A stretch of 64,000 nucleotides of DNA from a virus (IMGVR_UViG_2806310684_000002:3827-67826); one strand, 5' to 3'. Numbered from the stretch's first letter, positions 1,970-46,111 are shown. Numbers and translations are program-made. Notes: generated from the sequence alone by a model not told the origin.

Positions 1970-2164
1970 ATGTCCAGAACGAATCCCTTGGAGTACGCAG
2001 TGTACAAAGGCGATGAATTCCTTTGCTTAGGGACTGCTAAAGAGTGTGCTACTTACTTAGGTGTAACCGTCCAAACCATTAGATTTATGGTGTCTCCCAC
2101 CTATAGAAAGAGGACACAAAACTCAAAGGATCCATTGATAGCCATTAAAGTGGATGATGAATAG
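1970..2164 (+). CDS. Small phage protein, HTH-like
   Basis: YAVYKGDEF..GTAKECATYLGV motif; RBS GAGGTG. Confidence 0.7.
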   Translation: MSRTNPLEYAVYKGDEFLCLGTAKECATYLGVTVQTIRFMVSPTYRKRTQNSKDPLIAIKVDDE

Positions 2165-2180
2165 TAGACACAAACTGTGA
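2159..2180. repeat. Cassette-boundary inverted-repeat site (GAATAGT-AGACACAA-ACTGTGA)
   Basis: Left arm contains the stop codon of the upstream gene; right arm abuts the next RBS. Confidence 0.75.
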
Positions 2181-2195
2181 AGGAGTGAAAATACG

Positions 2196-2372
2196 GTGAA
2201 TAAGCAAAAATTCATAATAATCGATGTAACGGGTAGAACCCCAAAAGAAATCGAAGAACATATGAATAGACTTAATTCTATTGGATATAAGAGGGTCTTT
2301 CAAAGTGACATTCAATGGTATCAAGGTAAAGGAGATTGCGGTGTTATAACATTTGAATTAAAAGAAGACTAA
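2196..2372 (+). CDS. Small accessory protein (58 aa) between two boundary sites
   Basis: RBS AAGGAG, GTG start, MNKQKFIIIDVTGRTPKE...ELKED. Confidence 0.65.
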   Translation: MNKQKFIIIDVTGRTPKEIEEHMNRLNSIGYKRVFQSDIQWYQGKGDCGVITFELKED

Positions 2373-2373
2373 C

Positions 2374-2395
2374 GCACAGTACGAATAAACTGTCC
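2374..2395. repeat. Cassette-boundary site (GCACAGT-ACGAATAA-ACTGTCC)
   Basis: ACAGT/ACTGT inverted arms with an 8-bp spacer, 1 bp after a stop codon. Confidence 0.8.
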
Positions 2396-2438
2396 GGAAA
2401 CGAATTCTCGCGCGACATATTAGATAAGGGGGATAAAA

Positions 2439-2666
2439 TTGGAAGCTATAAAAGCAATTGAAAAGCTGAATTGGATGAAGCAGGAACAAATAAATTTGGA
2501 TCTTTGGTTAAGTGATTTGGAAATTAACAATAAGCCTGTAAATGGTGTTCATTGGAGAAGATTAAAAAAGACTATTGAGGTTTTTGAAGAAGATCTAATT
2601 GGGGAGATTCGTTCTTTAGAGTATAAGATTCACCAAAAACTTGGTGATATTGAAATAGACGTCTAA
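2439..2666 (+). CDS. Hypothetical phage protein
   Basis: ORF track; RBS AAGGGGG. Confidence 0.6.
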   Translation: MEAIKAIEKLNWMKQEQINLDLWLSDLEINNKPVNGVHWRRLKKTIEVFEEDLIGEIRSLEYKIHQKLGDIEIDV

Positions 2667-2707
2667 TGTTCACCCCAACGTAATACGGCAACAAAAAAAG
2701 AGGATGC

Positions 2708-2908
2708 TCAGCATTCACTAAGCAACCTCTTTGCTTTCTTTTTCTCAAGTAATTCTTTGTACTTTAAACCGAAAAGGATAAGTTCTTCAAACGCTTGGGA
2801 TCGATTATCTTTACGTTCATTAAAACGATAGTCTTCAACTTTTGAAAGAGTACTTTGATGAAGCGAAACAGTAGTGGTTGGTTTAGATGAATCTTTACGG
2901 ATATGCAT
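2708..2908 (-). CDS. Ribbon-helix-helix-like DNA-binding protein
   Basis: TTVSL strand, helix, then NRSQAFEELILFGL; RBS AAGGAG. Confidence 0.6.
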   Translation of the reverse strand: MHIRKDSSKPTTTVSLHQSTLSKVEDYRFNERKDNRSQAFEELILFGLKYKELLEKKKAKRLLSEC

Positions 2909-2964
2909 GTTATTTAGCTCCTTTATTTTTGGATGTACGTAATACGTTATTGCAATGGTTTTGC

Positions 2965-3177
2965 TTAATCGGATTCTTTTTCAAGGGTAAGCAGGTCGTC
3001 CACTTCGCAATTGAAGTAAGTACATAATCGAGCAATTACATCGAACGTGATTTGGATTGAAGTTTCATTATATAGTTTAGAAATTGATTTTCGGCTAAGG
3101 CCAGTGGCATCGGATACGTCTTGAATATTGACTCCTTTTTTCGCCATTAGGACTCTTAGGTTGTTTTTTACTACCAT
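2965..3177 (-). CDS. XRE/Cro-C1 HTH regulator
   Basis: NNLRVLMAKK..VSDATGLSRKSISKL..LCTYFNCEVDDLL. Confidence 0.9.
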   Translation of the reverse strand: MVVKNNLRVLMAKKGVNIQDVSDATGLSRKSISKLYNETSIQITFDVIARLCTYFNCEVDDLLTLEKESD

Positions 3178-3197
3178 TTGGTATCACCTCATGTTTT

Positions 3198-3326
3198 ATT
3201 ATATCCAAAAGGTTTCAAAATACAACCTCTGGGACTCATTTTGTTAAAAATAATTTGAAATACCTAAAGAAAATTCAAAATAATTAATACCCATGGGTTG
3301 TAGTTAACACCCTTGGGTGGTATAAT
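3198..3326. promoter_or_regulatory. Divergent sigma-A promoters with palindromic operators
   Basis: Rightward TTGTAG-17bp-TATAAT (3298-3326); leftward TATAAT at 3198-3203; ACCCATGGGT at 3289-3298 and ACCCTTGGGT at 3309-3318. Confidence 0.7.
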
Positions 3327-3349
3327 AAAAACAGAGAGGGGGGTTGAAT

Positions 3350-3571
3350 ATGTCGCAAGCTCCGTACATCGAGATAGACTTACATCGTGTAATGAGAGAT
3401 CGGGAAATCAAGACGATTGAACAGCTCAAGGATATGACTGGTCTTTCACGTAAGGCGATATCACATGCCTTAAACAAAAAACAACATAGAATGCACACTG
3501 ATACCATAGCTAAGCTTTGTGCAGCATTAGATTGTAGTGTAGGCGATTTATTAATTTTAAGGAAAGGGTGA
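3350..3571 (+). CDS. XRE/Cro-like HTH regulator
   Basis: LKDMTGLSRKAISHAL..IAKLCAALDCSVGDLL. Confidence 0.9.
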   Translation: MSQAPYIEIDLHRVMRDREIKTIEQLKDMTGLSRKAISHALNKKQHRMHTDTIAKLCAALDCSVGDLLILRKG

Positions 3572-3575
3572 TTGA

Positions 3576-4628
3576 ATGAATCAATTAGTTTTCAACGAGA
3601 ATGGACAGGCCGTAACGGATAGCTTAACTATTGCGGAAGTATTTGGGAAAGAACACAAAAACATACTTAGAGATATAAGAGATTTAGAAATGAAGAGTAC
3701 ATCAGATTTTTTCATTAAAAACTTTAGAGAAGATTATTACATTAGTTATAGGAACAAAAAGTATCCAAAATTCGTATTAACTGAAGACGGATTGACATTT
3801 TTGACGCTTGGTTATAACAAAGAAAAATACATTGAAATTAAGGAAAATTATATCAAGACTTTGAAGAGGTCAATCTCGGAAAATGAGATAAGGACTAATA
3901 TTGAAAAAAACGTTGAGCATATTAAAAGTGCTGAGGATATTTCTATAAAAGAGTATAAGAATCAAAGAGTAGTAACTTTCAAGGATGTCGATGAAGTTCA
4001 CAGAAGGCCTTATGGAACAGCTAGTAGAAACTTCAAACAAAATAAAAAACACTTTATTGAAGGAAAGCACTTTTACAAAATAACTCGAGACGAAATTCGT
4101 CCAGAGTTCGGATTTGGAATAAATGCGCCTAATGGGATATTAATCACAGAATTCGGTTATCTCAAATTAGTGAAATCATTTACCGACGACCTGTCTTGGG
4201 AAGTTCAAGAAAAAATAGTTGAAGTCTATTTTAGAGAAAATCAAAAACAATTAGAACAAATAGTTAGTCTACCAACAAATTTCGCTGAAGCCCTACGTTT
4301 AGCGGCGGATCTCGAAGAAGAAAATGAGCGAAATAGACCTAAAGTTGAAGCTCACGACAAGTTCATCAGTGGGGAGAATTATCAGAAGGTTGGACAGGTT
4401 GCGAAGGTTTTGAATATCGGGAGGAACAAACTGTTTGTCTTCCTAAGAGAGAACAAAATATTAATGAGTGACAATACGCCTTACCAGCAATACATTGATC
4501 GTGGATATTTCGTAGTTAAAGAGAAACCTATAGAGATGGGCTCACAGGTAATAAATAAACCACAAACCTATGTAACAGCTAAGGGTGTTGATTATATATC
4601 TAAGCTTTTGGACAAAAAAATAGCCTGA
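3576..4628 (+). CDS. Phage antirepressor (Rha + ORF6N + KilA-C domains)
   Basis: TDSLTIAEVFGKEHKNILRDI (Rha); EYKNQRVVTFKDVDEVH (ORF6N); IGRNKLF..PYQQYIDRGYF..VTAKG (KilA-C). Confidence 0.85.
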   Translation: MNQLVFNENGQAVTDSLTIAEVFGKEHKNILRDIRDLEMKSTSDFFIKNFREDYYISYRNKKYPKFVLTEDGLTFLTLGYNKEKYIEIKENYIKTLKRSISENEIRTNIEKNVEHIKSAEDISIKEYKNQRVVTFKDVDEVHRRPYGTASRNFKQNKKHFIEGKHFYKITRDEIRPEFGFGINAPNGILITEFGYLKLVKSFTDDLSWEVQEKIVEVYFRENQKQLEQIVSLPTNFAEALRLAADLEEENERNRPKVEAHDKFISGENYQKVGQVAKVLNIGRNKLFVFLRENKILMSDNTPYQQYIDRGYFVVKEKPIEMGSQVINKPQTYVTAKGVDYISKLLDKKIA

Positions 4629-4696
4629 TGCGCCAACATCAGACCTGGTTTTAAATGTTTTTATAAGTTTATGCTCTTGTGGTCAATTATATACCA
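4614..4696 (-). ncRNA. Putative OOP-like antisense RNA upstream of the replication initiator
   Basis: Minus-strand TATAAT at 4686-4691; terminator hairpin TCTGATG-TTGGCG-CATCAGG followed by a T run. Confidence 0.5.
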
Positions 4697-4754
4697 TCTT
4701 TCAAAAGTTGGCTACAGGAGCGTACGTTCGAAATACACAGCAAGGAGTGTTTAC

Positions 4755-5570
4755 ATGGATGTTAAATGGATTAGGTTAAGCACTCATATGTTTGAAGATG
4801 AAAAGATAAAATTGATTGAATCGCTGCCAGAAGCAGACACGATCTTAATTATATGGGTGAAGCTCTTATCTCAAGCAGGTAAGACAAATGCGTCAGGATT
4901 TATTTATCTCAATGAGAACATTCCGTTCACAGATGAGATGATTGCGACTATCTTTAATCGTCCACTTGCGACAGTGAGATTAGCGTTAAATACTCTCAAA
5001 CAGTTCGGAATGATTGAGATTTTAGACAATAATTTCATCAGTATTTGCAATTGGGAAAAGCATCAAAACGTTGCTGGGCTTGAGAAAATCAGAGAACAGA
5101 CAAGGCAACGTGTGGCTAAACACCGAGAAGCAAAAAGTATCTCATCTTGTAACGTTACAGTAACAGAAAGTAACGCTCTAGAACTAGAACTAGAATTAGA
5201 TATAGAACTAGATAAAGAAAAAGATAAAAAGAATAACCCTTACTCAAACGAGTTTGAGCAATTCTGGAATATCTATCCGAGGAAAGTGGATAAGAAGAAA
5301 GCCTTGAAATCGTTCAAGACAGCTTCCAAGATCCACTCTCTAGAAACTATATTGTCTGGTACACAAAAATATGCAAAGCAAGTCCAGAAAACGGACAAAC
5401 AATATATCAAGCACCCAACGACTTTCTTAAACAACGATTCATTCATAGATGGATTTGAAGAAAGGAGCGAGCAGTTTGGACAAGATACAAGAAGTTTTAA
5501 GCAAGCTCCAAGAACGAACGGCAGGCAATACGACATCGAACCACCAGAATTCAACTACGAACAAAGATGA
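4755..5570 (+). CDS. Phage replisome organizer / replication initiator
   Basis: MDVKWIRL..MFEDEKIKLIES..NWEKHQN N-terminal domain; FEQFWNIYPRKVDKKKA..IKHPTTFLN C-terminal domain. Confidence 0.9.
   Translation: MDVKWIRLSTHMFEDEKIKLIESLPEADTILIIWVKLLSQAGKTNASGFIYLNENIPFTDEMIATIFNRPLATVRLALNTLKQFGMIEILDNNFISICNWEKHQNVAGLEKIREQTRQRVAKHREAKSISSCNVTVTESNALELELELDIELDKEKDKKNNPYSNEFEQFWNIYPRKVDKKKALKSFKTASKIHSLETILSGTQKYAKQVQKTDKQYIKHPTTFLNNDSFIDGFEERSEQFGQDTRSFKQAPRTNGRQYDIEPPEFNYEQR
5148..5233. repeat. Probable phage origin: GTAAC/GTTAC iterons and (TAGAAC)n AT-rich repeats inside the initiator gene
   Basis: TGTAACGTTACAGTAACAGAAAGTAAC followed by TAGAAC/TAGATA hexamers. Confidence 0.55.
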
Positions 5571-6348
5571 GTGTTCTGAATGTAACGGTATGGGCTTCGT
5601 AATGTACCTTAAAAACGGTTATGAGTTCGCAAGAGAGTGTAAGTGCCAAGAAGCTATTAAAATGCGAATACGGTACCAAAACGCGACAATTCCAGATGAG
5701 TACGAGGAATACACTTTCAAGAACTTTGAGAAGAGGGAAGATGTACACGATCTGATGGTAACTAAGATTGTGGAGTATTTAAAAAACTTCCCTAATCAAC
5801 GACCGGAACCTACATGGAAAGATGGCAAACAAGAAAGATTTAAAGGCCCATCATTTGGATTCATTGCAACCTTTGGAGAACAGCGGATTAAAAATATAGG
5901 TGATCCTAACGCCAGGAACGATTTAAAACGGAAGCACAATAATTACGGGATTGGCAAAAGTCATTTAACGATAAGTGCAGCCAAGTTTTTACTAAAGAGT
6001 GGTTACAGAGTCCAGGTAGTGAGTGACCCGGTATTCATCCAAGATTTAATGACAGCTAAGTTTAACAACGATAAAGGGGAATCGTTCAATAACATCCTAT
6101 CGAGTGTTACAGCTTATGCGGACTTCGTAATCTGGGACGATCTTGGGAAACTGAAATGGACGGAGCCAAGAGAAGATTTATATTATCAGATTTTCAATGA
6201 GTTATATAAACAGGGTAAGCCGGTTATTTTCAGCAGTAACGAAGATATTGAAACGTTATCGGATAAAATCGGACAAGCTGCAGCAAGCAGGCTAAAAGGT
6301 ATGTGCAAAGGATTTCTATATCCGGTCGAAGGTAAGGACCAACGATAA
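5449..6348 (+). CDS. DnaC-like helicase loader ATPase
   Basis: CSECNGMG..CKC zinc motif; GIGKSHL Walker A; IWDDLG Walker B. Confidence 0.85.
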   Translation: MDLKKGASSLDKIQEVLSKLQERTAGNTTSNHQNSTTNKDECSECNGMGFVMYLKNGYEFARECKCQEAIKMRIRYQNATIPDEYEEYTFKNFEKREDVHDLMVTKIVEYLKNFPNQRPEPTWKDGKQERFKGPSFGFIATFGEQRIKNIGDPNARNDLKRKHNNYGIGKSHLTISAAKFLLKSGYRVQVVSDPVFIQDLMTAKFNNDKGESFNNILSSVTAYADFVIWDDLGKLKWTEPREDLYYQIFNELYKQGKPVIFSSNEDIETLSDKIGQAAASRLKGMCKGFLYPVEGKDQR

Positions 6349-6361
6349 GGGGGGAAGTAAT

Positions 6362-6520
6362 ATGCCATATTACAACGGATTCGGATTATATGATGAATCC
6401 CCATTAACCCCACCTAAGACAGACAAAGCAGATATTTTACACATGATTGACATGGCGATGGACACGAAAGATGAACAGTGGTTCGCGGAGCTAACGGAAC
6501 GACTTAAAAATATGGAGTGA
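6362..6520 (+). CDS. IDEAL-domain small protein
   Basis: MIDMAMDTKDEQWFAELTERL. Confidence 0.65.
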   Translation: MPYYNGFGLYDESPLTPPKTDKADILHMIDMAMDTKDEQWFAELTERLKNME

Positions 6521-6528
6521 GGTGCGGT

Positions 6529-6999
6529 ATGAGAGAAGTTAAATATCGGGCGTGGGATAACGTCGAGAACAAAATGTATTATCCAGGGGAAGAGGAAAAC
6601 ATTCACTTTTACTTCGATAGTTCGGGGATTGTAGCGGAAAGGTTTATTGAAGAAGAGGTATGCACGCCTGAAGGGGAACGTGGGATGTATGGGGGAACTG
6701 AAAAGCTTGAGCATCATAAATACATGCAATACACAGGATTAAAGGATAATGCGTCAGAAGAAGAACATCCAATGGAGATTTTCGAAAGTGACATCCTATT
6801 CGATCCTGTAAACGATGAATATTACATTGTTACTTGGGATGAAAGTTATGCAAATTTCTTTTTGAAAAACATTGATGACTCGCTTGGTAAACCAGATTAT
6901 GATTTTGCTGAGTATGACACGGATGTATGCGACGGCTTGTATGTAGTAGGTAACATTCACGAAAATCCGGAATTGTTGTGTGATTCGAATGTGCGCTAA
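6529..6999 (+). CDS. YopX family protein
   Basis: MREVKYRAWD..MQYTGLKD..EIFESDI..VVGNIHENPELL. Confidence 0.9.
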   Translation: MREVKYRAWDNVENKMYYPGEEENIHFYFDSSGIVAERFIEEEVCTPEGERGMYGGTEKLEHHKYMQYTGLKDNASEEEHPMEIFESDILFDPVNDEYYIVTWDESYANFFLKNIDDSLGKPDYDFAEYDTDVCDGLYVVGNIHENPELLCDSNVR

Positions 7000-7204
7000 T
7001 TGTAACGACCTAAAACACACCCATACAGAGGTAATAGCAGGGGTTTGGCAAGTAACCCCTTGCTCCTGCCTCCCTGATTGGGAAACGACGAGAAAACCGC
7101 AGCTGGAAAAAATCTTGAAGGAAGCGAGGGAGCGTTATGAGAGATACACAAAACAGAAGGATCAAGGATACGGAAGAGAAGTACATGTATCACAAGCGAC
7201 ATAA
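6980..7204 (+). CDS. Small Cys-containing phage protein
   Basis: CANC..PCSC; ORF track. Confidence 0.55.
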   Translation: MIRMCANCNDLKHTHTEVIAGVWQVTPCSCLPDWETTRKPQLEKILKEARERYERYTKQKDQGYGREVHVSQAT

Positions 7205-7406
7205 CCTTTACATCATGCTTGAGGATGAAGATGTGGACTGGTATTGGGACGAAACAGAGGTACTTGAATTCGATCGGATGTTCAATGAGGGAGCAACGGT
7301 CCTGGAACTATCTCAGCACTTTTGCCGCCCTACCATTGAAATCGCTTTGATTACCATTGACCGAGATTTAAAAGGGCTGCTGGGAGTTGATCGGTATGCC
7401 AATTGA
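7137..7406 (+). CDS. Hypothetical phage protein, HTH-like
   Basis: WDETEVLEFDRMFNEGATVLELSQHFCRP. Confidence 0.65.
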   Translation: MRDTQNRRIKDTEEKYMYHKRHNLYIMLEDEDVDWYWDETEVLEFDRMFNEGATVLELSQHFCRPTIEIALITIDRDLKGLLGVDRYAN

Positions 7407-7896
7407 ATTCCGTCCCGTGCCGAAGCCAGTTTCTAAGCCAAAGGAAAAGCCGCGGTATAAGGAGCGCAAGCCAAAGAAACGGAAGAAGCTTGAAACATTC
7501 AAAGGTCGAACAATTCCGCCAGCTAAGGTAAGGGGATCAATTAGCAAGAAGGAATATGGAAAAGTCATTGAGATATATGGTCATAATTGCGCTTATTGCT
7601 TTAGTTCTTATATTGAAATGCATCATATTCGGTTCCGATCGCAGCAAGGCAGAGGGACATACAGAAATTTAATTCCATTGTGCAAGGAGCACCACGGACT
7701 AGCACATAGAAATCGAGTATTCGCGGATCAACTTAGGAGAGAGCGGATACAAGCTTACGGAGAATGGTACTGGGCAGATAAATTTGACCTATGGAAACAA
7801 AACTTAATTCCTAACACCACTGATAAGGCATTTGAGGATTTCATGCTGAAAGAAGAGGTGAAGGCCCGTGAAGCGGTATGTACTAATCAAGACTGA
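7396..7896 (+). CDS. HNH endonuclease
   Basis: CAYC..EMHHIRFRSQQG..NLIPLCKEHH. Confidence 0.85.
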   Translation: MPIEFRPVPKPVSKPKEKPRYKERKPKKRKKLETFKGRTIPPAKVRGSISKKEYGKVIEIYGHNCAYCFSSYIEMHHIRFRSQQGRGTYRNLIPLCKEHHGLAHRNRVFADQLRRERIQAYGEWYWADKFDLWKQNLIPNTTDKAFEDFMLKEEVKAREAVCTNQD

Positions 7897-8042
7897 AAAA
7901 GATATAGATGGAGCTCCGTTACAGGTGGTTCAGGTGCTGGATAGTAAACCAAACAGGGTGGACTTTATTATCTTCGATAGAAAATAGCATATAAAATCCC
8001 ATTATCTATATTAGTCAATTCATGAGGGAGTGACAAGAGAAC

Positions 8043-8516
8043 ATGAGTTTCAAAAGGAAATTAATAGAGTTCGAGGTTGATGATAACGGATGTTTTATAT
8101 GCACTTCTCACGCAAGGAGTAAAGGATACCCCTTAAGTTGGGTCGGCGGAAAGAAAGTCAGGTTATTGCGTTTCATATACGAACAAATGCATGGAGAAAT
8201 CCCGGAAGGACATGTAATAAGACATAAATGTGATGTGCGTCCTTGCATAAATCCTGAACATCTTGAGACGGGAACTCCAAAACAAAATATGAACGATGCT
8301 ATTGAAAGAGGTCGTATGAGACCACTTCTAGGAGAAAAAAATCTTAATTCAAAATTAACCACTGATCAAGTCAGAGAAATAAAGTTTTCTATAAAAAATA
8401 AATCCGATTCCAATTATGGATTAGCTAGAAAATATGGAGTAAGCGAAATGGCTATTAGGAAAATAAAAAAAGGCACTATGTGGGCACATGTGAAATTAGA
8501 GGAGGAAATTATATGA
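8043..8516 (+). CDS. HNH homing-type endonuclease with C-terminal HTH
   Basis: [28 protein letters not shown]; [19 protein letters not shown]. Confidence 0.85.
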
Positions 8517-8998
8517 TGAATCGCACAGTTTTAGTCGGAAGACTTACAAAAGATCCGGAATTACGCTATACACCAAATGGAGTACCAGTGGCTACTTTTA
8601 CATTAGCTGTTAATCGTCCATTCAAAAATGCAGCCGGGGAACAAGAAGCTGATTTCATAAACGTGGTTGTGTGGAGAAAGCCGGCAGAGAACGCAGCCAA
8701 CTATCTAAAGAAGGGCTCACTTGCTGGAGTAGATGGACGAGTTCAAACACGTAATTATGAGGGGCAAGACGGGAAAAGAATTTACGTGACGGAAGTTCTA
8801 GCTGAATCAGTACAGTTTTTAGAGCCTAGGAGCCAGAATACAGGCGGTAACAGCCAAGGTAATACAAATACATCCAGTAGTAACCAAAACCGCACACAGA
8901 GCAATTACACAAGGGTTGATGATGATCCATTTTCAGGTAGTGGCTCGATATCAATTAACGACGATGATCTTCCCTTCGCACCATGGACGGAGGCGTAA
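8513..8998 (+). CDS. ssb: Single-stranded DNA-binding protein
   Basis: [24 protein letters not shown]. Confidence 0.97.
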
Positions 8999-9000
8999 AT

Positions 9001-9780
9001 ATGAAATGGACAGACGAATCCATAACAATAGCTGTTTTTGAATTAAAGGACAAACTCGGAGTAGCTCGTATGCCAAGTAGTACAGAAATGAGAAATAATA
9101 AACAAACCGGATTAATGAGAGCCATTACTGTATCAGGTGGGATGGCACGTTGGTCTAATATTCTAGGTCTACCGATGAAAGAAAAAGAAAAGTTTTGGAC
9201 GGATGAACGGATCGAAAAAGAAATAAGAAAAGCCATGGAATTGTTTGTGATAAATAGGATGCCTACAGCTAGTGAACTGACATCTATAGGCAGAAACGAT
9301 TTGCACTGCGCTTTGAGTAAATCAGAATTGAAATACTCAGGTTGGGCTAAAAAACTTGGATTGGAAATGAAATATTCCGAAACGGTCAAAGGGAACAAGT
9401 ACGAATTAATGATTAAAAATAGAATTGAGCAAATTTCAAATGATTTATTCGTTAAAGAAATGACCACAAGACATCCATATGACTTATTAATCAATGATTG
9501 TGTAAAGGTTGATGTAAAGGTAGCCTCACCTTACTTACTTAGAGGCGAAAGTATAGTTCACACATTTGGTATAAACAAAAAGTATGGAACTTGTGACATT
9601 TATATCTGTATAGCGCTGGATGAAAACGAAGAGATTGAAAGAACCTTTATTATCCCAGCATCACACTTACAGATCGTTACATTGTGTGTAGGTAAAGATA
9701 GTAAGTACAACAAGTACTTAGACAACTGGAATTTCCTTTATCAGTTTGTTCGTCAATATGAAAGGGCCATAAGCATATGA
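9001..9780 (+). CDS. Putative homing-type nuclease (two WTDE.I repeats plus a PD-(D/E)XK domain)
   Basis: KWTDESI..RMPSSTEM and FWTDERI..RMPTASEL repeats; PYDLLINDCVKVDVK. Confidence 0.65.
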   Translation: MKWTDESITIAVFELKDKLGVARMPSSTEMRNNKQTGLMRAITVSGGMARWSNILGLPMKEKEKFWTDERIEKEIRKAMELFVINRMPTASELTSIGRNDLHCALSKSELKYSGWAKKLGLEMKYSETVKGNKYELMIKNRIEQISNDLFVKEMTTRHPYDLLINDCVKVDVKVASPYLLRGESIVHTFGINKKYGTCDIYICIALDENEEIERTFIIPASHLQIVTLCVGKDSKYNKYLDNWNFLYQFVRQYERAISI

Positions 9781-10400
9781 AAATACACTTGGCTACTGAT
9801 ACACAATTAGAAGAAATCACTAAACATGATCATGACTGCCCTCCCTCTCTTTTGGGAGAGGTAGTTGAGGAGATGTTAAATAGAAATCTATTCGACAGGA
9901 TGATTACTCATTGTTGCAAAATGGTGTTCGGAAGTTTTAACCGAATGAAGGAATTACACAGCATGGAGTTAGAAGATTTTTTACAGATAGGGCGCACAGC
10001 TGTATTTAAGGCGGTCAAGATGTTCGAACCCGGGAAAGGGAAATCATTTTCTAGTTTTGTTCACATGTTTATTAAACAAAGAATTGTTGAGTGTATCAAG
10101 TTCTTGGAAAGAGATAGGCGAGATCAGCGTAATGAATTCAGGGATATTGAGACAGAGGATGGCTTAAATATGTTTTATTTCATGCCAAGCCAGACAAATG
10201 TCGAGAAGTTCGTCATTAACAAAATCATGATAGAGGATTTCCTGAATCAATTGACCGAACGGCAAAGGCAAGTGATGGAGTTATATCTTAAGGACCACAA
10301 CTTCGAGGAAATCGCAGAAATGTTAGGGAGAAAAGGCAAAGGGCGATCTTTAAATAAGACCTATAACGATGCAATGAAAAAATTGAGAAAAGGGGCGTAA
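9777..10400 (+). CDS. Phage sigma-70 family sigma factor
   Basis: EDFLQIG..FKAVKMFEPGKGKSFSSF (region 2); LTERQRQV..EEIAEMLG (region 4). Confidence 0.85.
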   Translation: MKIHLATDTQLEEITKHDHDCPPSLLGEVVEEMLNRNLFDRMITHCCKMVFGSFNRMKELHSMELEDFLQIGRTAVFKAVKMFEPGKGKSFSSFVHMFIKQRIVECIKFLERDRRDQRNEFRDIETEDGLNMFYFMPSQTNVEKFVINKIMIEDFLNQLTERQRQVMELYLKDHNFEEIAEMLGRKGKGRSLNKTYNDAMKKLRKGA

Positions 10401-10402
10401 GT

Positions 10403-10729
10403 ATGAATTTTAATGAATACCAACAATTATCTAAAAGGACAATGCCAGGGACACATGATGGGAAAGCATTAGCAAATTATGCATTAGGTCTTACGGGGGA
10501 AGCCGGGGAGTGTGCGGACATCATCAAGAAAGAAGTATTCCATGGCCACAGAAGGGATGCTCAAGCGATTAAAAAGGAACTGGGTGACGTATTACATTAT
10601 TTGACTGGTTTAGCCACCATGTACGGATACACGCTGGAAGAAGTAGCGAATGCAAATATTGAAAAGCTGATGAAGCGTTATCCAAGTGGTTTTTCAAAAG
10701 AGGCAAGCATCAAGAGGATTGATGTATGA
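10403..10729 (+). CDS. MazG-like nucleotide pyrophosphohydrolase
   Basis: LGLTGEAGECADIIKK..ELGDVLHYL..NIEKLMKRYP. Confidence 0.92.
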   Translation: MNFNEYQQLSKRTMPGTHDGKALANYALGLTGEAGECADIIKKEVFHGHRRDAQAIKKELGDVLHYLTGLATMYGYTLEEVANANIEKLMKRYPSGFSKEASIKRIDV

Positions 10730-10872
10730 GTGATCAAGAACGTGCAACCATGATTGAATGGTTAGCCATGACAGGATATAGCAAACAGTATTACGAAAAA
10801 ATGAGTGATAAAGAATTAGAGTTTTATTACCGTGAAATGCTGGAGGAAAACAATGGGGAAAATCAACAGTAA
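10726..10872 (+). CDS. BH0509-like small protein
   Basis: ERATMIEWL..YYEKMSDKELEFYY. Confidence 0.6.
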   Translation: MSDQERATMIEWLAMTGYSKQYYEKMSDKELEFYYREMLEENNGENQQ

Positions 10873-11284
10873 GAAAACAATCGTGGGCGGCATCGTATTT
10901 GACAGCCAAACAGAAGGACAATACTATCAGTACCTTACCAATGATCCTAATGTGAAACATATAGAGTTACAGCCTAAATACACCTTGTTAGAAGCTTTCA
11001 AGATAAGCTGCAGCAAATGCATCGGGGAGGGCAAAACGCCTTCTCCAAAGACTAACAGGATGATTAAATGCAGGACATGTGAAGGGACAGGCAAGAAAAG
11101 CCGGCAACCCTGGACCTATAAAGCTGATTTTAAAGTAACCTACATGAATGGTAATGAGGAAGTAATCGATGTGAAAGGCTTTGCTAACGAACGATTTCCA
11201 CTGGTTAAGAAGATGTGGGAAAGAAAATACGGACAAGAGCTGATCGTGGTGAAGAAAGTAAAAGGTGGATGGAAAAGAGGTTGA
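10853..11284 (+). CDS. DUF1064 family nuclease with an inserted CxxCxGxG zinc finger
   Basis: FDSQTE..LQPKYTL..YKADF..IDVKG; CSKCIGEG and CRTCEGTG. Confidence 0.8.
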   Translation: MGKINSKKTIVGGIVFDSQTEGQYYQYLTNDPNVKHIELQPKYTLLEAFKISCSKCIGEGKTPSPKTNRMIKCRTCEGTGKKSRQPWTYKADFKVTYMNGNEEVIDVKGFANERFPLVKKMWERKYGQELIVVKKVKGGWKRG

Positions 11285-11286
11285 GC

Positions 11287-11622
11287 GTGAAAACAATTGA
11301 GATGTCAGAAGTCGTTCAAGAAATGATGAACGTAAAAACCCGTATGGATGGATCAATTAAAGAAGCATACAAACAAGCAAAAGTTAAGGATGCAGCTGAA
11401 CGAGAATATAGAAAGCAGTTAGCGAAAGAGATACTGAAGCTAAAATCAGAAGGGTATCAAGCCACATTGATTGGAGACATCGCAAGGGGGAATTGTGCAG
11501 ACTTGAAATTCGAAAGAGATATAGCTAAAACACTTTACGATTGTGCAAAGGATTCAAAGGATGTATTGAAAGCTGAAGCAAGTATGCTGCAAACGATAGC
11601 GAAATTCCAAACTGATTTATAG
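11287..11622 (+). CDS. Conserved phage coiled-coil protein
   Basis: AEREYRKQLAKEILKLK..ATLIGDIARG. Confidence 0.7.
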   Translation: MKTIEMSEVVQEMMNVKTRMDGSIKEAYKQAKVKDAAEREYRKQLAKEILKLKSEGYQATLIGDIARGNCADLKFERDIAKTLYDCAKDSKDVLKAEASMLQTIAKFQTDL

Positions 11623-11642
11623 GGTGCGTATCAATACGAGCT

Positions 11643-11737
11643 AAATAAAAAACCCCTAGGTGAGATATTTCAGTTCCTGGTAGACCGTCACCTAAGGGTT
11701 AATGCGAGCAGGCGTATACCTGACTAACCACAGTATA
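11643..11737 (-). ncRNA. Putative stand-alone small RNA cassette
   Basis: Minus-strand TATACT -10; hairpin CAGG-TATACG-CCTG; stem ACCCTTAGGTGA..TCACCTAGGGGT followed by T6. Confidence 0.55.
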
Positions 11738-11799
11738 AAATGAATTTTTTTATAAATAAAGAGTTAACGAGTGAAACGGTTAAGTGAAGATATGGTGTT

Positions 11800-11821
11800 A
11801 CTGAGTGGGCAAAAACTGTTC
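11800..11821. repeat. Cassette-boundary site (ACTGAGT-GGGCAAAA-ACTGTTC)
   Basis: AGT-N8-ACTGT just upstream of the RBS of the next small gene. Confidence 0.65.
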
Positions 11822-11840
11822 ATTAAAAAGGGGTGGTTGA

Positions 11841-12002
11841 GTGAAGCAAACAAACGACATAGTGGATTTATGGATGAAGTTTTGTGAAGCAAACAATGCA
11901 ACATTTATCGAAGGAGGACAAGGGATATACACCTTTAGAGATAAGGTAGGTAGAAAATGGTGGTACTTGTCGGAAAAACAGTTGAGAGAACTTTTTGATT
12001 AA
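11841..12002 (+). CDS. Small accessory protein (53 aa)
   Basis: RBS GGGGTG, GTG start, MKQTNDIVDLW...RELFD. Confidence 0.6.
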   Translation: MKQTNDIVDLWMKFCEANNATFIEGGQGIYTFRDKVGRKWWYLSEKQLRELFD

Positions 12003-12009
12003 TATTATG

Positions 12010-12031
12010 TCGCAGTACGATTAAACAGTGA
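12010..12031. repeat. Cassette-boundary site (TCGCAGT-ACGATTAA-ACAGTGA)
   Basis: Lies between a stop codon (12002) and RBS AGGAGG. Confidence 0.8.
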
Positions 12032-12048
12032 AGGAGGATGATGACATT

Positions 12049-12201: not shown

Positions 12202-12202
12202 C

Positions 12203-12238: not shown

Positions 12239-12255
12239 GGAATGGAGGGATATAA

Positions 12256-12492: not shown

Positions 12493-12493
12493 T

Positions 12494-40170: not shown

Positions 40171-40416
40171 GTGTGGATGATGGATTTTGAAATACACCAT
40201 ATTAAAAAGAAAGCATTTAAGCCATTACAGGAGTTTTTAGCCGATTGGAGCAACGATAAAGAAGATATCGAAAATACTTTAAGCCAATACATGTACATGT
40301 GCCATGATGAAGAAAAAACCTATTACAAACACTTTGGGAATCGAGAGTACTTTAACATCTTAAATAATGGTACAACTGAGGGAGAACTAGAGGATTGGAG
40401 GAATTGGTATGATTGA
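40171..40416 (+). CDS. Hypothetical protein
   Basis: ORF track. Confidence 0.6.
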   Translation: MWMMDFEIHHIKKKAFKPLQEFLADWSNDKEDIENTLSQYMYMCHDEEKTYYKHFGNREYFNILNNGTTEGELEDWRNWYD

Positions 40417-41602
40417 ATGGTTAGCTATTCCTGCCATTGCTTTAGTGGCTGCCTTTATTCCGGGTAAGAAAATGACGGACGAAAAGAAGATTCAACAAAT
40501 ATTTGAAAACAGGAAGGTCGGTATTAATCAGAATGATAATTTCCTTTACCCCAAATTGATCCGTAAATATAACCACCACACATACACCACTTATATCTAC
40601 TCCTTGCCATTAGGCGTACCTTCAGAAGCGTTCGAATCCTTTATCCCTGTACTGAAAGATGGACTCAATAAAGATGTTGAAGTTGATTTTGATGAGGTTT
40701 TAAAAATTAATGTATTTGAACATGGCCTGCCTGAAAGCTGGAATTATGACGATTCCCTCCTTAGGTCTGCAACATGGGAGATACCTATCGGAAACAATCA
40801 TAAAGGAACTTTGTATCACGATTTCGAAAAGTATCCTCATATGCTCGTTGGAGGAGTTACACGTTTTGGCAAAACAGTCTTTATAAAAGAAGCCTTTTAT
40901 ACATTGCTCATGGATCAGTTAGAGAATGTTGAATTTTATTTCTTGGACTTGAAAGGCGGCTTGGAGTTTGGGAAATATCTTTCATTGCCACAAGTAAAGG
41001 CAGTGGCTAGTGATGTTTTTGAAGCAGCGGAAGTGTTGTCCGAAATTGTGGATGACTTAAAAAATCGTGAAAAGATGTTTCGTGCAAAGGGATTTACAAA
41101 CATTGTGGATACTCCTATTAAGAAAAGGACCTTTGTGGTAGTGGATGAGGGAGCCGAGTTATCTCCCAATATCATTGCTGGGGAGGGAAAGAAATACGCT
41201 AAATTCTGTCAGGCTGCCCTTTCTGAAATATCTCGAATAGGCGGAGGTTTAGGATTAAGACTGCTTTACTGTACGCAATACCCCACTAAAGAAGCGGTCC
41301 CGATGCAAGTAAAAATGAATATAGTTTCTTGGATTTCATTCATAGCTGCAGCGCAAATTGGCAGCATGGTTATTTTAGATGAAAAGGGAGCAGAGGATTT
41401 ACCTAGCACTCCAGGAAGAGCTATTTACAAAATTGAAAAGAAAAAAGTTGTTCAAGTTCCCTATATTGACGATAAATATATGTTCAAAAAAATGGAGGAA
41501 AGAGAACATGAAATCATTCACGCAGCAACGAATAGAAAGTCTGTTAACGACAATAGACCAGCTGAGTATGACGAAAATACGCCACCTGCAGCAAATACAT
41601 GA
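40409..41602 (+). CDS. FtsK/SpoIIIE-domain ATPase
   Basis: PHMLVGGVTRFGKT, DLKGG, VVVDE, TQYP. Confidence 0.92.
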   Translation: MIEWLAIPAIALVAAFIPGKKMTDEKKIQQIFENRKVGINQNDNFLYPKLIRKYNHHTYTTYIYSLPLGVPSEAFESFIPVLKDGLNKDVEVDFDEVLKINVFEHGLPESWNYDDSLLRSATWEIPIGNNHKGTLYHDFEKYPHMLVGGVTRFGKTVFIKEAFYTLLMDQLENVEFYFLDLKGGLEFGKYLSLPQVKAVASDVFEAAEVLSEIVDDLKNREKMFRAKGFTNIVDTPIKKRTFVVVDEGAELSPNIIAGEGKKYAKFCQAALSEISRIGGGLGLRLLYCTQYPTKEAVPMQVKMNIVSWISFIAAAQIGSMVILDEKGAEDLPSTPGRAIYKIEKKKVVQVPYIDDKYMFKKMEEREHEIIHAATNRKSVNDNRPAEYDENTPPAANT

Positions 41603-42206: not shown

Positions 42207-42313
42207 ATGATTAAAACGATTTGAAAAGGTTTGAAAAGCATCCCGAAACAAAATGGACTATATCAACAGATTAATGGAATTGGAAGGTATAAAAAAGGTA
42301 ATATTTATAGTTG

Positions 42314-42373
42314 GATATGTTCCGCACGCAAGTCCACCCATGGGAACGCGAACAATATATGTCCATGTATTAA
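42314..42373 (+). other. glnA: att junction: displaced 3' end of the glutamine synthetase gene
   Basis: Translates as DMFRTQVHPWEREQYMSMY*, matching the Bacillus GlnA C-terminus. Confidence 0.9.
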
Positions 42374-42380
42374 TAGCTTC

Positions 42381-42425
42381 AAAGCCTTGGTATTACTGAG
42401 TTTCTCAGTTGCCAAGGCTTTTTTT
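42381..42425. terminator. Terminator-like hairpin between the glnA fragment and the integrase
   Basis: AAAGCCTTGG..CCAAGGCTTTTTTT. Confidence 0.75.
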
Positions 42426-42471: not shown

Positions 42472-43655
42472 CTATTTCATATTCAACTGCGTATAATCCA
42501 TGTAATTTGAATATCCGTCTACACTTTTTTCTTCGAGTATTTTTGACACGTGAGCATAGACATCTGCTGTTGTTTGAATGGATTTATGTCCTAAACGTTC
42601 CTGCACATCTTTTAAACTGGATCCAGATTCAAGAAGTAAAACGGCGTGGGTATGTCGTAAACCGTGGATGGTTATATGTTTAGTAATTCCTGCTTTTCTA
42701 CAGATGCGATTAAAAGCTCTGTGTAAGGTGGATTTTGAATAGGGGAGGCCATTCCCTCTTTCGAAAACAAGAGTTGTTTCTCTATGATATCTATCTGCCA
42801 ATTTCAACCTTATTTCCTTTTGCTTAATGACATGACGTGTTAACAGAGCGGCAAGGCTTTCTGCGATTAAAATTTTCTATACGATGTTTCAGTTTTAGGT
42901 GGTCCAAACATTTTATCAATATCCAATGCATCATACTTTATAGTTTTGTATACTTTAATTTTATTTTCGGTAAAGTCTAAATCGTGAAACTGGAGAGCTA
43001 AAGCTTCGCCTTTTCTTAAACCAGTATAAATCAGTGTTTTAAATAAAATAAAATAGTTCCAATCTTCTGCTTGAGCAGCATCTAAAAATCTAAATACTTC
43101 ATCTTTGCTTAGATATTCTAAATCTTCATCTTCTTTTATCTGGTTTATTGCCTTATTAGGGATTGTCACTCCAGAACAAGGGTTTTTAGATATCATTTCA
43201 AGAGAAACGGCTTTATTCATCGCATTGTAAAGAGTAGTGTGGATGATTTCTACAGTTCTTTTACTTTTTTCTTGATCAGCGAGTTTATTAATGATTTTTT
43301 GATAATGTGTTGGGGTTAAATCTTTTATCTTCATATGACCTATTAACGGAAGGAGTTTTTTTTGAACATTTCGTTCATGAAGCTTAAATGTATTTTCTTT
43401 CACTGCATTCTTTTTATAGGTGACTAACCAATCAGGTAAGTAATCTTTAAAAAGAATATCTTTGTTATAAGCCTGTCCGTTATTTATAATAATGTCTTTA
43501 AGTGCTTCCTCCACCTTAAAAGCAGCTTCTTTTTTAGTATCTGCACGTCGTGTAATTTGAGTTCTTTTACCAGTTGCGGGATTGCGAGGACCTTCTTCAG
43601 TACAATTCCATTTGTAGCCCTGTTTATTTTTAGCAGGAACTTTTTTGATATTAAG
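42472..43655 (-). pseudogene. int: Tyrosine integrase, frameshifted near 42867 and lacking a start codon
   Basis: TGLRKGEALAL; HGLRHTHA..RLGH..TTADVY; split into two ORFs. Confidence 0.9.
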
Positions 43656-44069
43656 ACAAAATGGACACAGTCTTTAATTTTTTGTTTTTTGTCAGCAATG
43701 ATTGCTCACAATTCTTCCGACAATCCTTCCGACAGTTCTTCCGGCAAACCGGTTCCAGGTAAAGAAGAAGGAAAAAAGGAATTAAATGCTTTTCAATTTT
43801 ATGAACAAGAAGGTTTTGGGACCATCAGTGGATTTATGGCAGAAAGAATAGGCTTCTTGATTGATGATTTTGGTGAAGCATCATTAATAGCAGCCATGCA
43901 GGAATCAGTATTGCAAGGAGCTCGAAACTTAAAATATGTAGAAGCTATCTTGCTAAATCCTAAGAAAAATTCAGGTGATAAAAAAGGGGGAAAGTTCAAA
44001 ATGCTAAGAAAAATGAGTCTACAGGAGCCTTACTTGAAAAATACGACTTCGGTACCCCGTTTCGGATAA
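43656..44069 (+). pseudogene. Remnant of a DnaD-domain replication initiator
   Basis: NAFQFYEQEGFG..NLKYVEAIL; TTCCGACA iterons near 43713-43748; N-terminus missing. Confidence 0.7.
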
Positions 44070-44094
44070 AAGGTGCGGTGATTGCCAAAAGTTA

Positions 44095-44823
44095 ATGTTC
44101 TTAGATGGTTTCCGAAATTCATTCTGTTGGTACTGCGAAGAGATTAAAGGACAAGATTGGCAATTAGCTAAAGAAACTGAACTTATTCACCAAAGGAATC
44201 AGATAAGGGGGCTCTATGAGGAGTTTGCTGAGAATAGTTTAATCAACGAAAAGTTGAAGAAAGCTACATTTGCCAATTATGTTCCTCCTTCACCTGATCT
44301 TGATAGTGCAAAACATGCTTATATAGACTTCGTGAAGAACTATGATCCTGATAATCCTCAGAGTCTCCTGGTCATTGGAAATTATGGTACTGGGAAAAGC
44401 CATTTAGCAGTGGCGGCTACAAAAGAATTTATGAAGCAGGAGAAATCGGCATTGTTCATCCAAGTAAACAAGTTATTTACCAAAATTACTTCTACCTGGA
44501 ATAAAAACAGCGAGTTAACAGAAGGGAAACTGATGGAAATCATTGCTTCTGTAGAACTGTTAGTTATTGATGATTTTGGTGCGGAATTTACGGAAAAGGA
44601 CAAATCCCAAATAACTTGGAAAGTAACAAAAATGAACGAAATTATAGATTCACGTTGTGGTAAATCTACTATTTTCACGACAAACTTCACTATTTCAGAG
44701 CTATCTGCCATGTACGGTGAAAGAGATTTTTCCCGGATGATTCAGGATGCCGATCCGATTGAGATGTACGGAGACAATTATAGATTGCGAAAATTCCAGA
44801 AAGAAAAGGGAGAATTCAAATGA
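44095..44823 (+). CDS. DnaC/IstB-like helicase loader (5' end probably damaged)
   Basis: GNYGTGKSHLA, LVIDDFGAE, TIFTTN. Confidence 0.85.
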   Translation: MFLDGFRNSFCWYCEEIKGQDWQLAKETELIHQRNQIRGLYEEFAENSLINEKLKKATFANYVPPSPDLDSAKHAYIDFVKNYDPDNPQSLLVIGNYGTGKSHLAVAATKEFMKQEKSALFIQVNKLFTKITSTWNKNSELTEGKLMEIIASVELLVIDDFGAEFTEKDKSQITWKVTKMNEIIDSRCGKSTIFTTNFTISELSAMYGERDFSRMIQDADPIEMYGDNYRLRKFQKEKGEFK

Positions 44824-45056
44824 CCCAAATTAATTTATTAGGCTTTAATGGCCCCGCGCCACACTCGATTATTTACTGGCAGCAAGGCGGGGAGGATCAA
44901 TCAAAAACGGTCTGCTATACGCCGGATGAAGAAAAATGGGCGCTAGATCGTTTTCATACAGCTGGTGATTATTATTATAAAACTTATGATAAAGCTGTTG
45001 TGGATTATGGAGATGAGGTTGTTGATTATCCTCACTCGTTAAGAAAGGGGGCATAA
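44820..45056 (+). CDS. Hypothetical phage protein
   Basis: ORF track; RBS. Confidence 0.6.
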   Translation: MTQINLLGFNGPAPHSIIYWQQGGEDQSKTVCYTPDEEKWALDRFHTAGDYYYKTYDKAVVDYGDEVVDYPHSLRKGA

Positions 45057-45058
45057 GC

Positions 45059-45202
45059 ATGTATTGTCCCGTGTGTAATCGTCCATTAAAAAGCAAAGAA
45101 AGTATTGCCAAGGGTATCGTTCCTGTTTGCGAAGCAAAGCTAAAAAAGATGAAGAATGAAGCTCCTGAGAATCAAATTATGATGGAATTGAAGGTGAAGT
45201 AA
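45059..45202 (+). CDS. DUF6011-like zinc-binding small protein
   Basis: CPVCNRPLKSKESIAKGI.PVC. Confidence 0.7.
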   Translation: MYCPVCNRPLKSKESIAKGIVPVCEAKLKKMKNEAPENQIMMELKVK

Positions 45203-45543
45203 TGCCAGTCAGTAAATACGGCAACAAGAAGGTGACCTTGGATGGCCATACATTTGATAGTAAAGCTGAGGCGAAATACTACGAGCAGCTTAAGTGGTCT
45301 CAACTTCACAACCAAATTTTATTTTTCCGAATACAGCCTCGGTATCTTCTTCAGGCGGCTTTCATGAAGAACGGTAAAACTTTTCGGAAAATTGAATATG
45401 TTGCGGATTTTGAAATCCATAACCTCGACGGATCCATTGAGATAATCGATGTGAAAGGCGTGGAAACGGAGGCATTTAAGATTAAGAGAAAGCTATTTGA
45501 AAAGATTTACCCGCATAAGCTTTCTTCTCCTCAACTTAGATGA
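45202..45543 (+). CDS. DUF1064 family nuclease (C-terminus possibly frameshifted)
   Basis: SKYGNKK..FDSKAEA..YVADF..IDVKG. Confidence 0.85.
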   Translation: MPVSKYGNKKVTLDGHTFDSKAEAKYYEQLKWSQLHNQILFFRIQPRYLLQAAFMKNGKTFRKIEYVADFEIHNLDGSIEIIDVKGVETEAFKIKRKLFEKIYPHKLSSPQLR

Positions 45544-45748
45544 TACATACGGCTGGATTGAGCTGGATGACCCAAGAAGCGTGAGAAAAAAGCAGGGAAG
45601 GTGAAAGCCAATGCAAAGGCGCGTAAGCCGAGAATGGGTACTCCTGTTTCGAAGAGAAGGCGTGCATAAGGTATTCGTTTATGAGCTATTGCGAAAGAAG
45701 GAGCTGGCCAACCGGCTCAGGAGAGGTTGGAAAGTATTAAATTAAATC

Positions 45749-45770
45749 GCGCGGTCGACACAAACAGTGC
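45749..45770. repeat. Cassette-boundary site (GCGCGGT-CGACACAA-ACAGTGC)
   Basis: Same family as the prophage 1 sites; spacer GACACAA shared with the 2159 site. Confidence 0.75.
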
Positions 45771-45794
45771 CGACTGAAAATTTGTCATATCTAC

Positions 45795-45985
45795 TTATTC
45801 AGCATTTTTCTTTTCATAAAAAATCATTGCTATATGGATAATTAAACTTATTGAAAGGGCAATAACAATACTAATATCTAGTGTTCCTGCGTCTTCGGGT
45901 TTATTAAAGAATCCGTTAATTGTAGTGAATATTAGAAGAACTAAATAAATATAGATTACATTTTTCGGGAAAAATGAAATTGGGA
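45795..45985 (-). pseudogene. Two-TM small protein remnant in an inverted cassette
   Basis: RKNVIYIYLVLLIF..ISIVIALSISLIIHIAMIFYEKKNAE*; no intact start codon. Confidence 0.5.
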
Positions 45986-46089
45986 ATACCCCCTTTAAGA
46001 ATTGATGTTATCAATTTCCTGTCAGTAACTATTGTATCTAAAAAGAGAGTACCTTGATAGAGGCCTAATGTATTTTTAAGAAAAGTACA

Positions 46090-46111
46090 GCATAGTTCGA
46101 ATAAACACTGA
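46090..46111. repeat. Cassette-boundary site (GCATAGT-TCGAATAA-ACACTGA)
   Basis: Spacer CGAATAA shared with the 2374 site. Confidence 0.75.

Follow-up and report, generated by a model that had tools for sequence, protein, structure and literature searches.

How temperate phages acquire and shed small accessory genes and yet leave essential ones intact is a long-standing question, and the joints of mosaic phage genomes mostly carry no recognisable signal. The stretch of DNA analysed here (IMGVR_UViG_2806310684_000002:3827-67826, 64,000 nucleotides (nt), called the window below, with positions counted from its first letter) raises this question through copies of one short palindrome, here called the M-site, that lie between its genes. 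The window corresponds to positions 1834687-1898686 of contig C1 in a host genome of 5.0 Mb that consists of two contigs (C1 and the 87-kb C2). An earlier sequence-only reading had taken these copies for the sites of a candidate integron-like system delimiting single-gene cassettes in two prophages. We find that the M-sites form a non-random family bound to gene junctions and are part of a system of cassette arrays that extends far outside phages. They are probably the junctions at which single-gene modules are exchanged, and the joint is in this case a defined sequence of 16-20 nt that can be mutated, moved and assayed. Comparison was made with 47 genomes of the host genus, one per species, and with phage contigs of IMG/VR.

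The setting is a pair of prophages. A repeat of 74-78 nt occurs three times, at C1 1830696, at window positions 42313-42390 and at C1 1903660, and integrase genes are found at C1 1830861-1832012, on the side of the first prophage (P1), and, split in two, at window positions 42472-43514 in the second (P2). The three repeats and the integrase genes therefore indicate that two prophages sit in tandem at a single attachment site. P1 starts some 4 kb before the window and ends at 42.3 kb, P2 extends from 42.4 kb to about 5 kb past the window end, and a third prophage (P3) is located near C1 652-693 kb. P1, P2 and P3 have almost no proteins in common, and the observation that both window prophages carry M-sites with the same spacers was confirmed.

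The M-site is best described as an imperfect palindrome of about 20 bp, CACAGT-N8-ACTGTG. The pattern originally written for it, SCAGT-N8-ACWGTG, matches only two places in the window (12012 on the plus strand and 32861 on the minus strand, against 0.05 expected), so the family is looser than first described, while its reality was upheld by a weight matrix. When each copy was scored with a leave-one-out matrix over 10,013,964 genome positions, the number of positions scoring at least as high was 2 for the copy at 34904, 8 for each of those at 2159 and 2374, 11 for 12010, 19 for 46090, 23 for 12494 and 36 for 45749, which places seven of the eight copies among the best 2-36 of 10 million positions. 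These seven are regarded as strong copies. The eighth, at 11800, is weak (leave-one-out score 9.4, with 396 positions scoring at least as high), and a further one at 12203 is marginal (full-matrix score 8.4, with 793 genome positions at 8 or above). The remaining places in the original list of copies fell away. The one at 32860 fits the loose palindrome only (full-matrix score 7.5) and is probably a chance match, since it falls within an open reading frame (ORF) of 794 aa (32518-34902); those at 12238, 11619 and 35253 were ruled out by full-matrix scores of 0.8, -9.0 and -0.5, the last of them adjoining a hairpin with a T-run. All eight accepted copies are on the plus strand, co-oriented with the phage genes.

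Two main spacer classes were distinguished, GACAC and CGAAT/CGATT, the second of which is found as CGAATA, CGACTA, CGATTA and TGAATA. The palindrome is broken in five phage copies, whose right arm is ACAGTG, and the hairpins predicted for phage copies are weak (-2.3 and -2.9 kcal/mol). A 16-letter site pattern, GTNSRMWYAAACWGTG, has seven matches in this genome and none for its reversed control; across the 47 genus genomes it has 96 matches, against 20 for the control. Of the 96 matches, 52 are a single exact 16-mer, GTTGACACAAACTGTG, spacer included, that recurs in many species. A tandem run of units of about 50 nt with GGTCGAATAAAC-like words, at C1 4409600-4409990, also gives weak M-site matrix scores and is probably unrelated to the M-sites.

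In the prophages the M-site fills the gap between the stop codon of one gene and the ribosome-binding site of the next. As had been noticed from the sequence, six copies (2159, 2374, 12010, 12494, 34904 and 45749) contain a stop codon or come 4-10 nt after one, and the ribosome-binding sequence GTGAAGGAG follows directly at three (2159, 12010 and 12494), to which an extra copy 630 nt upstream of the window can be added. Each interval holds one small ORF, of 58, 53, 50-57 and 78 aa on the plus strand and of 61 aa, with two helices, on the minus strand, in agreement with the earlier description of unrelated genes in either orientation. No PHROG or Pfam family was assigned to these cassette ORFs, a sub-threshold zinc ribbon being the sole hit. 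The sites and cassettes are as follows.

2162-2180, plus strand: M-site (2159) with GACAC spacer, overlapping the TAG stop of the Gam-like ORF 1970-2164; AAGGAG directly after it
2196-2372, plus strand: cassette ORF of 58 aa, no known family
2377-2395, plus strand: M-site (2374) with CGAAT spacer, 4 nt past the stop codon at 2370-2372
11803-11821, plus strand: weak M-site copy (11800), upstream of ORF 11841-12002
11841-12002, plus strand: cassette ORF of 53 aa, no known family
12013-12031, plus strand: M-site (12010) with CGATT spacer; AAGGAGG directly after it
12049-12201, plus strand: cassette ORF of 50 aa from ATG, or 57 aa from the GTG at 12028, with CxxC pairs and the sub-threshold Pfam zinc ribbon
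12206-12224, plus strand: marginal, degenerate M-like copy (12203), score 8.4
12256-12492, plus strand: cassette ORF of 78 aa, no known family
12497-12515, plus strand: M-site (12494) with TGAAT spacer, between the stop codon at 12490-12492 and the ribosome-binding site of an ArpU-like regulator (12528-12974)
34907-34925, plus strand: M-site (34904) with GGAAC spacer, 4 nt past the stop codon of the 794-aa ORF 32518-34902
35015-35251, plus strand: ORF of 78 aa, no known family; it has a sigma-A-like promoter of its own, and a hairpin and T-run after it (by eye)
45752-45770, plus strand: M-site (45749) with GACAC spacer, left border of a shared cassette
45798-45980, minus strand: ORF of 61 aa with two hydrophobic helices, no known family, start apparently ATT, own promoter region
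46093-46111, plus strand: M-site (46090) with CGAAT spacer, closing the shared cassette on its right; the ribosome-binding site of the following plus-strand gene comes after it

The site at 34907-34925 is the left border of a promoter-ORF-terminator unit placed between the 794-aa ORF, which is tail-fibre-like by size and position only, and the next plus-strand genes; its 16-mer is also present in two other genomes of the genus (G056 and G023).

A scan of the whole genome added two P1 copies just upstream of the window (C1 1834055 and 1834293), one pair in P3 (C1 661264 and 661623), another on the minus strand (C1 694924 and 694472) and two single copies, one on C2 and one at C1 4077483. The typical module has a GACAC-class site on its left and a CGAAT-class site on its right, and this ordered pair encloses one cassette at six places: 2159/2374 and 45749/46090 in the window, C1 1834055/1834293, 661264/661623 and 694924/694472, and the IMG/VR contig L020. 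L020 has the same recombination-gene backbone as P1, at 77% identity, and its pair encloses a different, reverse-oriented membrane ORF of 57 aa. It is the only relative among the 19 IMG/VR contigs with the exact CGAWT-class pattern; the other 18 have a single isolated match each, taken as chance, and one of them (L030) carries a tandem run of the unit. A megablast search of window positions 1-14000 against the phage collection gave zero matches.

The borders of the shared cassette were located by alignment. The cassette at 45754-46107 is 94% identical to C1 661266-661637 in P3, and the flanks of the two are unrelated from within each site outward. It recurs in seven more places in five other genomes, where the alignments start at query position 255 in four of seven cases (the others at 237, 267 and 278) and end at query positions 604-607 in six of seven, the remaining one being truncated at 498; positions 255 and 604-607 both fall within the two M-sites. 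A P1-like phage in G056 gives the same picture for P1: homology of the Gam-like gene ends at window position 2180 and homology of the ArpU-like gene begins at 12503, each within an M-site, and other cassettes lie between its M-sites, one of them between two GACAC sites in direct order. In the genome contigs, a scan with the ArpU-like protein found only two loci, in two genomes. A module with a 61-aa ORF near C1 694k is inverted in G041, where homology starts at an M-like right arm. In related phages (those of G056 and L020), sites of the same types thus enclose other cassettes at corresponding positions, and these comparisons support the view that the sites coincide with the borders of what appear to be exchangeable single-gene modules. 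As to content, M-site-paired cassettes often encode reverse-oriented hydrophobic peptides of 35-61 aa with their own promoters (window 45798-45980 on the minus strand, L020 4166-4339 and L002 at about 890-1290), which resemble type I toxins or exclusion proteins.

The M-sites are not confined to phages. In other genomes a hairpin/terminator repeat of about 95 nt, called LE here, is found upstream of the left M-site. A profile built from eight copies detected 46 LE at E ≤ 1e-3 in the genome studied here. Contig C2 has 28, which share a strand; a chromosomal island (C1 4,042,444-4,085,656) has 13, likewise co-oriented; the other 5 are scattered. On C2 at E ≤ 1e-2, 40 hits merge into 37 elements that span 33.1-85.9 kb (loci L060-L063) and leave 36 intervals with a median of 989 nt. 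By a crude ORF call, 16 of these intervals have a single ORF, 18 have at least two and 2 lack ORFs, with 57 ORFs on the plus strand and 21 on the minus strand. Seven of ten cassette proteins that were scanned fall in unrelated families (DUF6584, methyltransferase, MFS, DUF4181, GNAT, erythromycin-esterase-like and YesK-like), and the other three in no family. LE arrays also occur in four other genomes (G056, G012, G011 and G057) and on a plasmid recorded as Bacillus bombysepticus, where 6 of 11 LE start 0-18 nt past an annotated stop codon. In a sample of 151 genomes of the order, an LE 22-mer with at most one mismatch was present in 13, belonging to 11 of 84 genera, and the control was present in none.

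LE contains two CTAAC-N6/7-GTTAG palindromes around a hairpin; for most cassettes, a U-run comes after this hairpin on the sense strand. The predicted fold comprises an outer stem, an internal loop, an inner stem and a terminal hairpin (-32.7 and -44.6 kcal/mol), and its pairs are mostly conserved, with few compensatory changes. The boxes AACTAAC and GTTAGTT each agree with the attC boxes R''/R' (RYYYAAC/GTTRRRY) at 6 of 7 positions, with little covariation; in the folding model LE has an attC-like architecture.

The link between LE and the M-site was seen at the exact 16-mer GTTGACACAAACTGTG, of which 20 genomic contexts were sampled. Fourteen of these sites adjoin an LE on the upstream side, with diverse cassettes behind them, and one falls by chance within a conserved gene (L077). 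Four cassettes in the sample are closed by a CGAAT-class site with the next LE directly after it; together with the upstream LE, this gives M(CGAAT)-LE-M(GACAC) as the full array junction. The array M-sites are perfect or near-perfect palindromes (-7.5 to -9.8 kcal/mol) and are better conserved than the LE that they adjoin. The prophages carry bare M-sites with no LE. On C2, conversely, most LE have no M-site, and only one matrix hit there reaches 15; M-site and LE are therefore separable. Between arrays, 2 of 16 blast alignment ends fall within 30 nt of an LE, against 1.0 expected, a figure that carries no weight because the arrays have too few cassettes in common.

The two ORFs of 277 aa at the edges of the two arrays turned out to be unrelated, one hydrolase-like and the other IS-transposase-like (IS, insertion sequence), as judged by reading the sequences. 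One 277-aa ORF, at C2 85998-86831, reads like an IS3-type transposase and adjoins a partial IS copy at the C2 end (C2 87194-87367). The complete element lies inside P2, at window positions 50814-52291, and has two more copies on C1 at more than 99.6% identity.

We infer recombination at the M-sites from sequence, and lean slightly, and tentatively, toward exchange by short-homology recombination. The partners would be temperate phages, or a phage and a cassette array on a Peribacillus-type chromosome or plasmid. Because a module is bracketed by a GACAC and a CGAAT site, a double crossover at the two could replace it without harm to the neighbouring genes. Phage exchange would be driven by the phage's own annealing protein and exonuclease, and exchange in arrays by the RecA of the host. 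The P1 genes concerned are the following.

233-1838, plus strand: P1 recombination module, with a phrog_3657 protein (233-1066) and an exonuclease (1038-1838)

The phrog_3657 protein, to which PHROG gives no function, is by its position a candidate annealing partner of the P1 exonuclease; P1 also encodes a Gam-like protein (ORF 1970-2164). Short-homology exchange fits these recombination genes, the precedent of the PeSL motifs of T4-type phages (described below) and the absence of a linked recombinase.

Several observations weigh against this interpretation. The evidence for repeated borders comes mainly from one cassette family, so that the sites could merely mark the ends of a mobile unit. 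Breakpoints were expected to coincide with the sites in related phages, and they did not always do so: in a phage of G024 the ArpU-like gene and the gene upstream of the junction are both kept, but an HNH gene stands between them and the site is missing, and the P2 relatives that were fetched, at loci too short to cover the upstream flank, are homologous only from about 220 nt downstream of the 46090 site. M-sites are absent from three more distant phage relatives with exonuclease or Gam-like genes (L089, L092 and L093). A length of 16-19 nt is short for homologous exchange, and the conservation of an exact 16-mer, above that of LE, suggests recognition by a protein. The earlier proposal of recombination sites for accessory genes is supported in part by the coincidence of module borders with sites, which does not distinguish short-homology from site-specific recombination.

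Under the latter, which we consider possible but somewhat doubtful, the M-sites would be true sites with inverted arms of 6-7 bp and a crossover region of 6-8 bp, acted upon by a recombinase encoded elsewhere. This would be a Xer-like enzyme of the host or another tyrosine recombinase, as XerC/XerD act on the pdif sites of Acinetobacter, and the dif-module system would be its precedent. The two spacer classes would be mutually incompatible, and a GACAC...CGAAT pair would replace the cassette between replicons without excision. The geometry fits, and the array copies are near-perfect palindromes; the GACAC-class spacer is exactly conserved across species in 52 of the 96 matches, the ordered pairs are heterotypic at all six places, the module inverted between C1 694k and G041 is bounded by inverted M-like sites, and the M-site is more conserved than the 95-nt LE beside it. 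On the other hand, the palindrome is broken in the five phage copies with ACAGTG, the CGAAT-class spacer varies, and the G056 cassette between two direct-order GACAC sites departs from the heterotypic arrangement.

The search for an enzyme bears on the same question. Every genus genome has between 6 and 26 partial matches to tyrosine-recombinase models, a point in favour of an enzyme encoded elsewhere. A recombinase linked to the M-sites was not found: of the 11 tyrosine-recombinase matches in this genome none is on C2 (PF00589) and none is beside the chromosomal array. The integron integrase model TIGR02249 was matched above its cut-off in 0 of the 47 genus genomes (best score about 99 bits, cut-off 265), and no Y1 transposase was found in the arrays. 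Recombinase-like genes on C2 are limited to a broken resolvase and a resolvase-like fragment of 94 aa near the array end. The host dif site, at C1 2366061, coincides with the GC-skew maximum, and by eye neither the M-site arms nor those of LE show a convincing likeness to it. P1 itself contains a dif-like site of 28 nt (18217-18244), in the gap between ORFs 17116-18057 and 18609-19208, which differs from the host dif by one letter per arm and has a different spacer; a 397-aa protein with an FtsK/SpoIIIE domain is encoded at 40409-41602, between the P1 lysis region and the right attachment repeat. The sequence-only reading had seen no cognate recombinase in the window, which is correct as to enzymes linked to the sites, but the window does hold the P1 module at 233-1838 and the following split integrase.

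42472-43514, minus strand: P2 tyrosine integrase in two ORFs (42472-42807 and 42867-43514), adjoining the 78-nt attachment repeat at 42313-42390

Since this integrase is split into two ORFs, P2 may be defective.

A broader version of site-specific exchange, for which the chances appear somewhat lower still, is that of an integron analogue without an integron integrase, common to Peribacillus-type bacteria, their plasmids and their phages, with a recombinase encoded elsewhere acting on the M-sites. The attC-like LE would separate the cassettes, bracketed by the two classes of M-site as 20-bp cores, and the M-site pairs of phages would be docking points through which genes move between phage and cellular pool by double site-specific exchange. 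This would amount to natural recombinase-mediated cassette exchange with incompatible spacers. Membership of the integron family, for its part, was not supported, given that the integrase did not score above its cut-off in any of the 47 genomes and that the M-sites are not attC hairpins.

It is unlikely that the M-sites are regulatory, that is, protein-binding sites (an operator or stoperator of a phage or host repressor) or an RNA signal at gene starts such as a translation-initiation context, with their position at borders a by-product. Mycobacteriophage stoperators and start-associated sequences are a precedent for this reading. A palindrome of 20 bp is typical of the operator of a helix-turn-helix dimer, the prophage sites are strictly co-oriented with transcription, and four copies have a ribosome-binding site directly after them. 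But the ArpU-like gene of G024 has no such site, reverse-oriented cassettes with promoters of their own are flanked by sites as well, and the array sites stand on both sides of the terminator repeat whatever genes are present. The weak hairpins of the phage copies and the lack of an Rfam match also count against the regulatory reading. The TTGACA of the GACAC class was considered as a promoter element and rejected, as by eye the 20 sampled contexts show no consistent -10 element at a suitable spacing.

That the M-sites are relics with no present function, whether ends of one small mobile-element family or products of shared ancestry and chance, is very improbable, for the dominance of one cassette family in the border evidence, the degenerate copies at 11800 and 12203 and the chance 16-mer in a conserved gene (L077) are set against 96 matches to 20 in controls, diverse cassettes behind the sites and a site kept across species while both flanks are unrelated.

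One further element lies close to the P1 cassettes. A stretch of about 80-90 nt at 11630-11725, with a hairpin and T-run on the minus strand, has matches of about 76-81% at one place each in 23 other genomes of the genus and a second copy at C1 3891993-3892081; it matches no Rfam family and may be a small RNA carried by the prophage. No tRNA or Rfam match was found in the window, in positions 11500-12600 at E ≤ 1, or on C2.

Should an enzyme act on the M-sites, they would represent a new gene-capture system and a possible cassette-exchange tool for Bacillaceae. If short homology suffices, the PeSL idea would no longer be confined to lytic T4-type phages but would also cover temperate phages of Gram-positive hosts and the plasmids of those hosts. 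Site-string and keyword searches of the literature, covering the top-ranked matches, found no description of M-sites or LE, the only paper matched by site strings being an unrelated one on Drosophila, and the system was compared with those that it resembles.

The linker or boundary sequences of lambdoid phages and the stoperators and start-associated sequences of mycobacteriophages are likewise short, located at gene junctions and oriented with transcription, and some of them overlap stop or start signals, as M-sites do. Stoperators are repressor sites with tens of copies per genome. The lambdoid boundary sequences, unlike the M-sites, are not known as palindromic sites that chromosomal cassette arrays also carry.

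Three other parallels have been described. The PeSL motifs of T4-type phages, each a sigma-70 promoter with a terminator stem-loop, are reported to flank ORFans in hyperplastic regions, where insertion, deletion and replacement differences map to them; their exchange was proposed to proceed without a dedicated recombinase, and mini-circles were shown by inverse PCR (PMC2839356). M-sites too flank ORFs without a family, coincide with places where related phages differ and come with no dedicated recombinase, and the composite of M-site, LE terminator and M-site in the arrays is a conserved regulatory block between cassettes. In contrast, the phage M-site is about 20 bp long, without a -10 partner and with a weak hairpin only; the resemblance is partial in the arrays, where LE has a terminator-like hairpin whose U-run is on the sense strand of the cassette. 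The M-site is not a PeSL, because it holds no promoter or terminator, and it occurs in temperate Bacillaceae phages as well as chromosomes and plasmids.

The dif modules of Acinetobacter plasmids, bounded by pdif (XerC-XerD) sites, are stated to be unique to Acinetobacter (PMC13141974). In both systems small accessory modules lie between sites of about 20-28 bp with two arms and a 6-bp spacer, the module contains no recombinase, modules are common to several replicons and the identity of the spacer matters. The present system is not of this kind, because the sites are unlike dif (by eye, for the host site); moreover, prophage M-sites are direct whereas pdif sites alternate, apart from one inverted module with inverted M-like borders, and M-sites occur in prophages.

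Integrons, finally, are reported to be nearly absent from Firmicutes, with one complete integron and 'a few CALIN' (10.1101/2022.02.28.482270), and a paper about integron components carried by phages makes no mention of Bacillus in its accessible portion (PMC9892861). Integron and CALIN arrays resemble those described here in their mostly co-oriented cassettes of unrelated functions (GNAT, methyltransferase, MFS, esterase-like), in repeats that start just past a stop codon and in the predicted attC-like fold of LE with its CTAAC...GTTAG boxes. They differ in that the integron integrase was found in none of the 47 genomes and beside no array, for which reason the system is not an integron, and in that phage M-sites are simple sites of 20 bp without attC hairpins, many cassettes have their own promoters, and about half of the C2 intervals hold more than one ORF by the crude call. 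In a phylum with hardly any known integrons, the M-sites thus tie the genomes of phages to large arrays of cassettes, and the system to which they belong, being neither an integron, nor a dif-module system, nor a set of PeSL motifs, behaves like all three.

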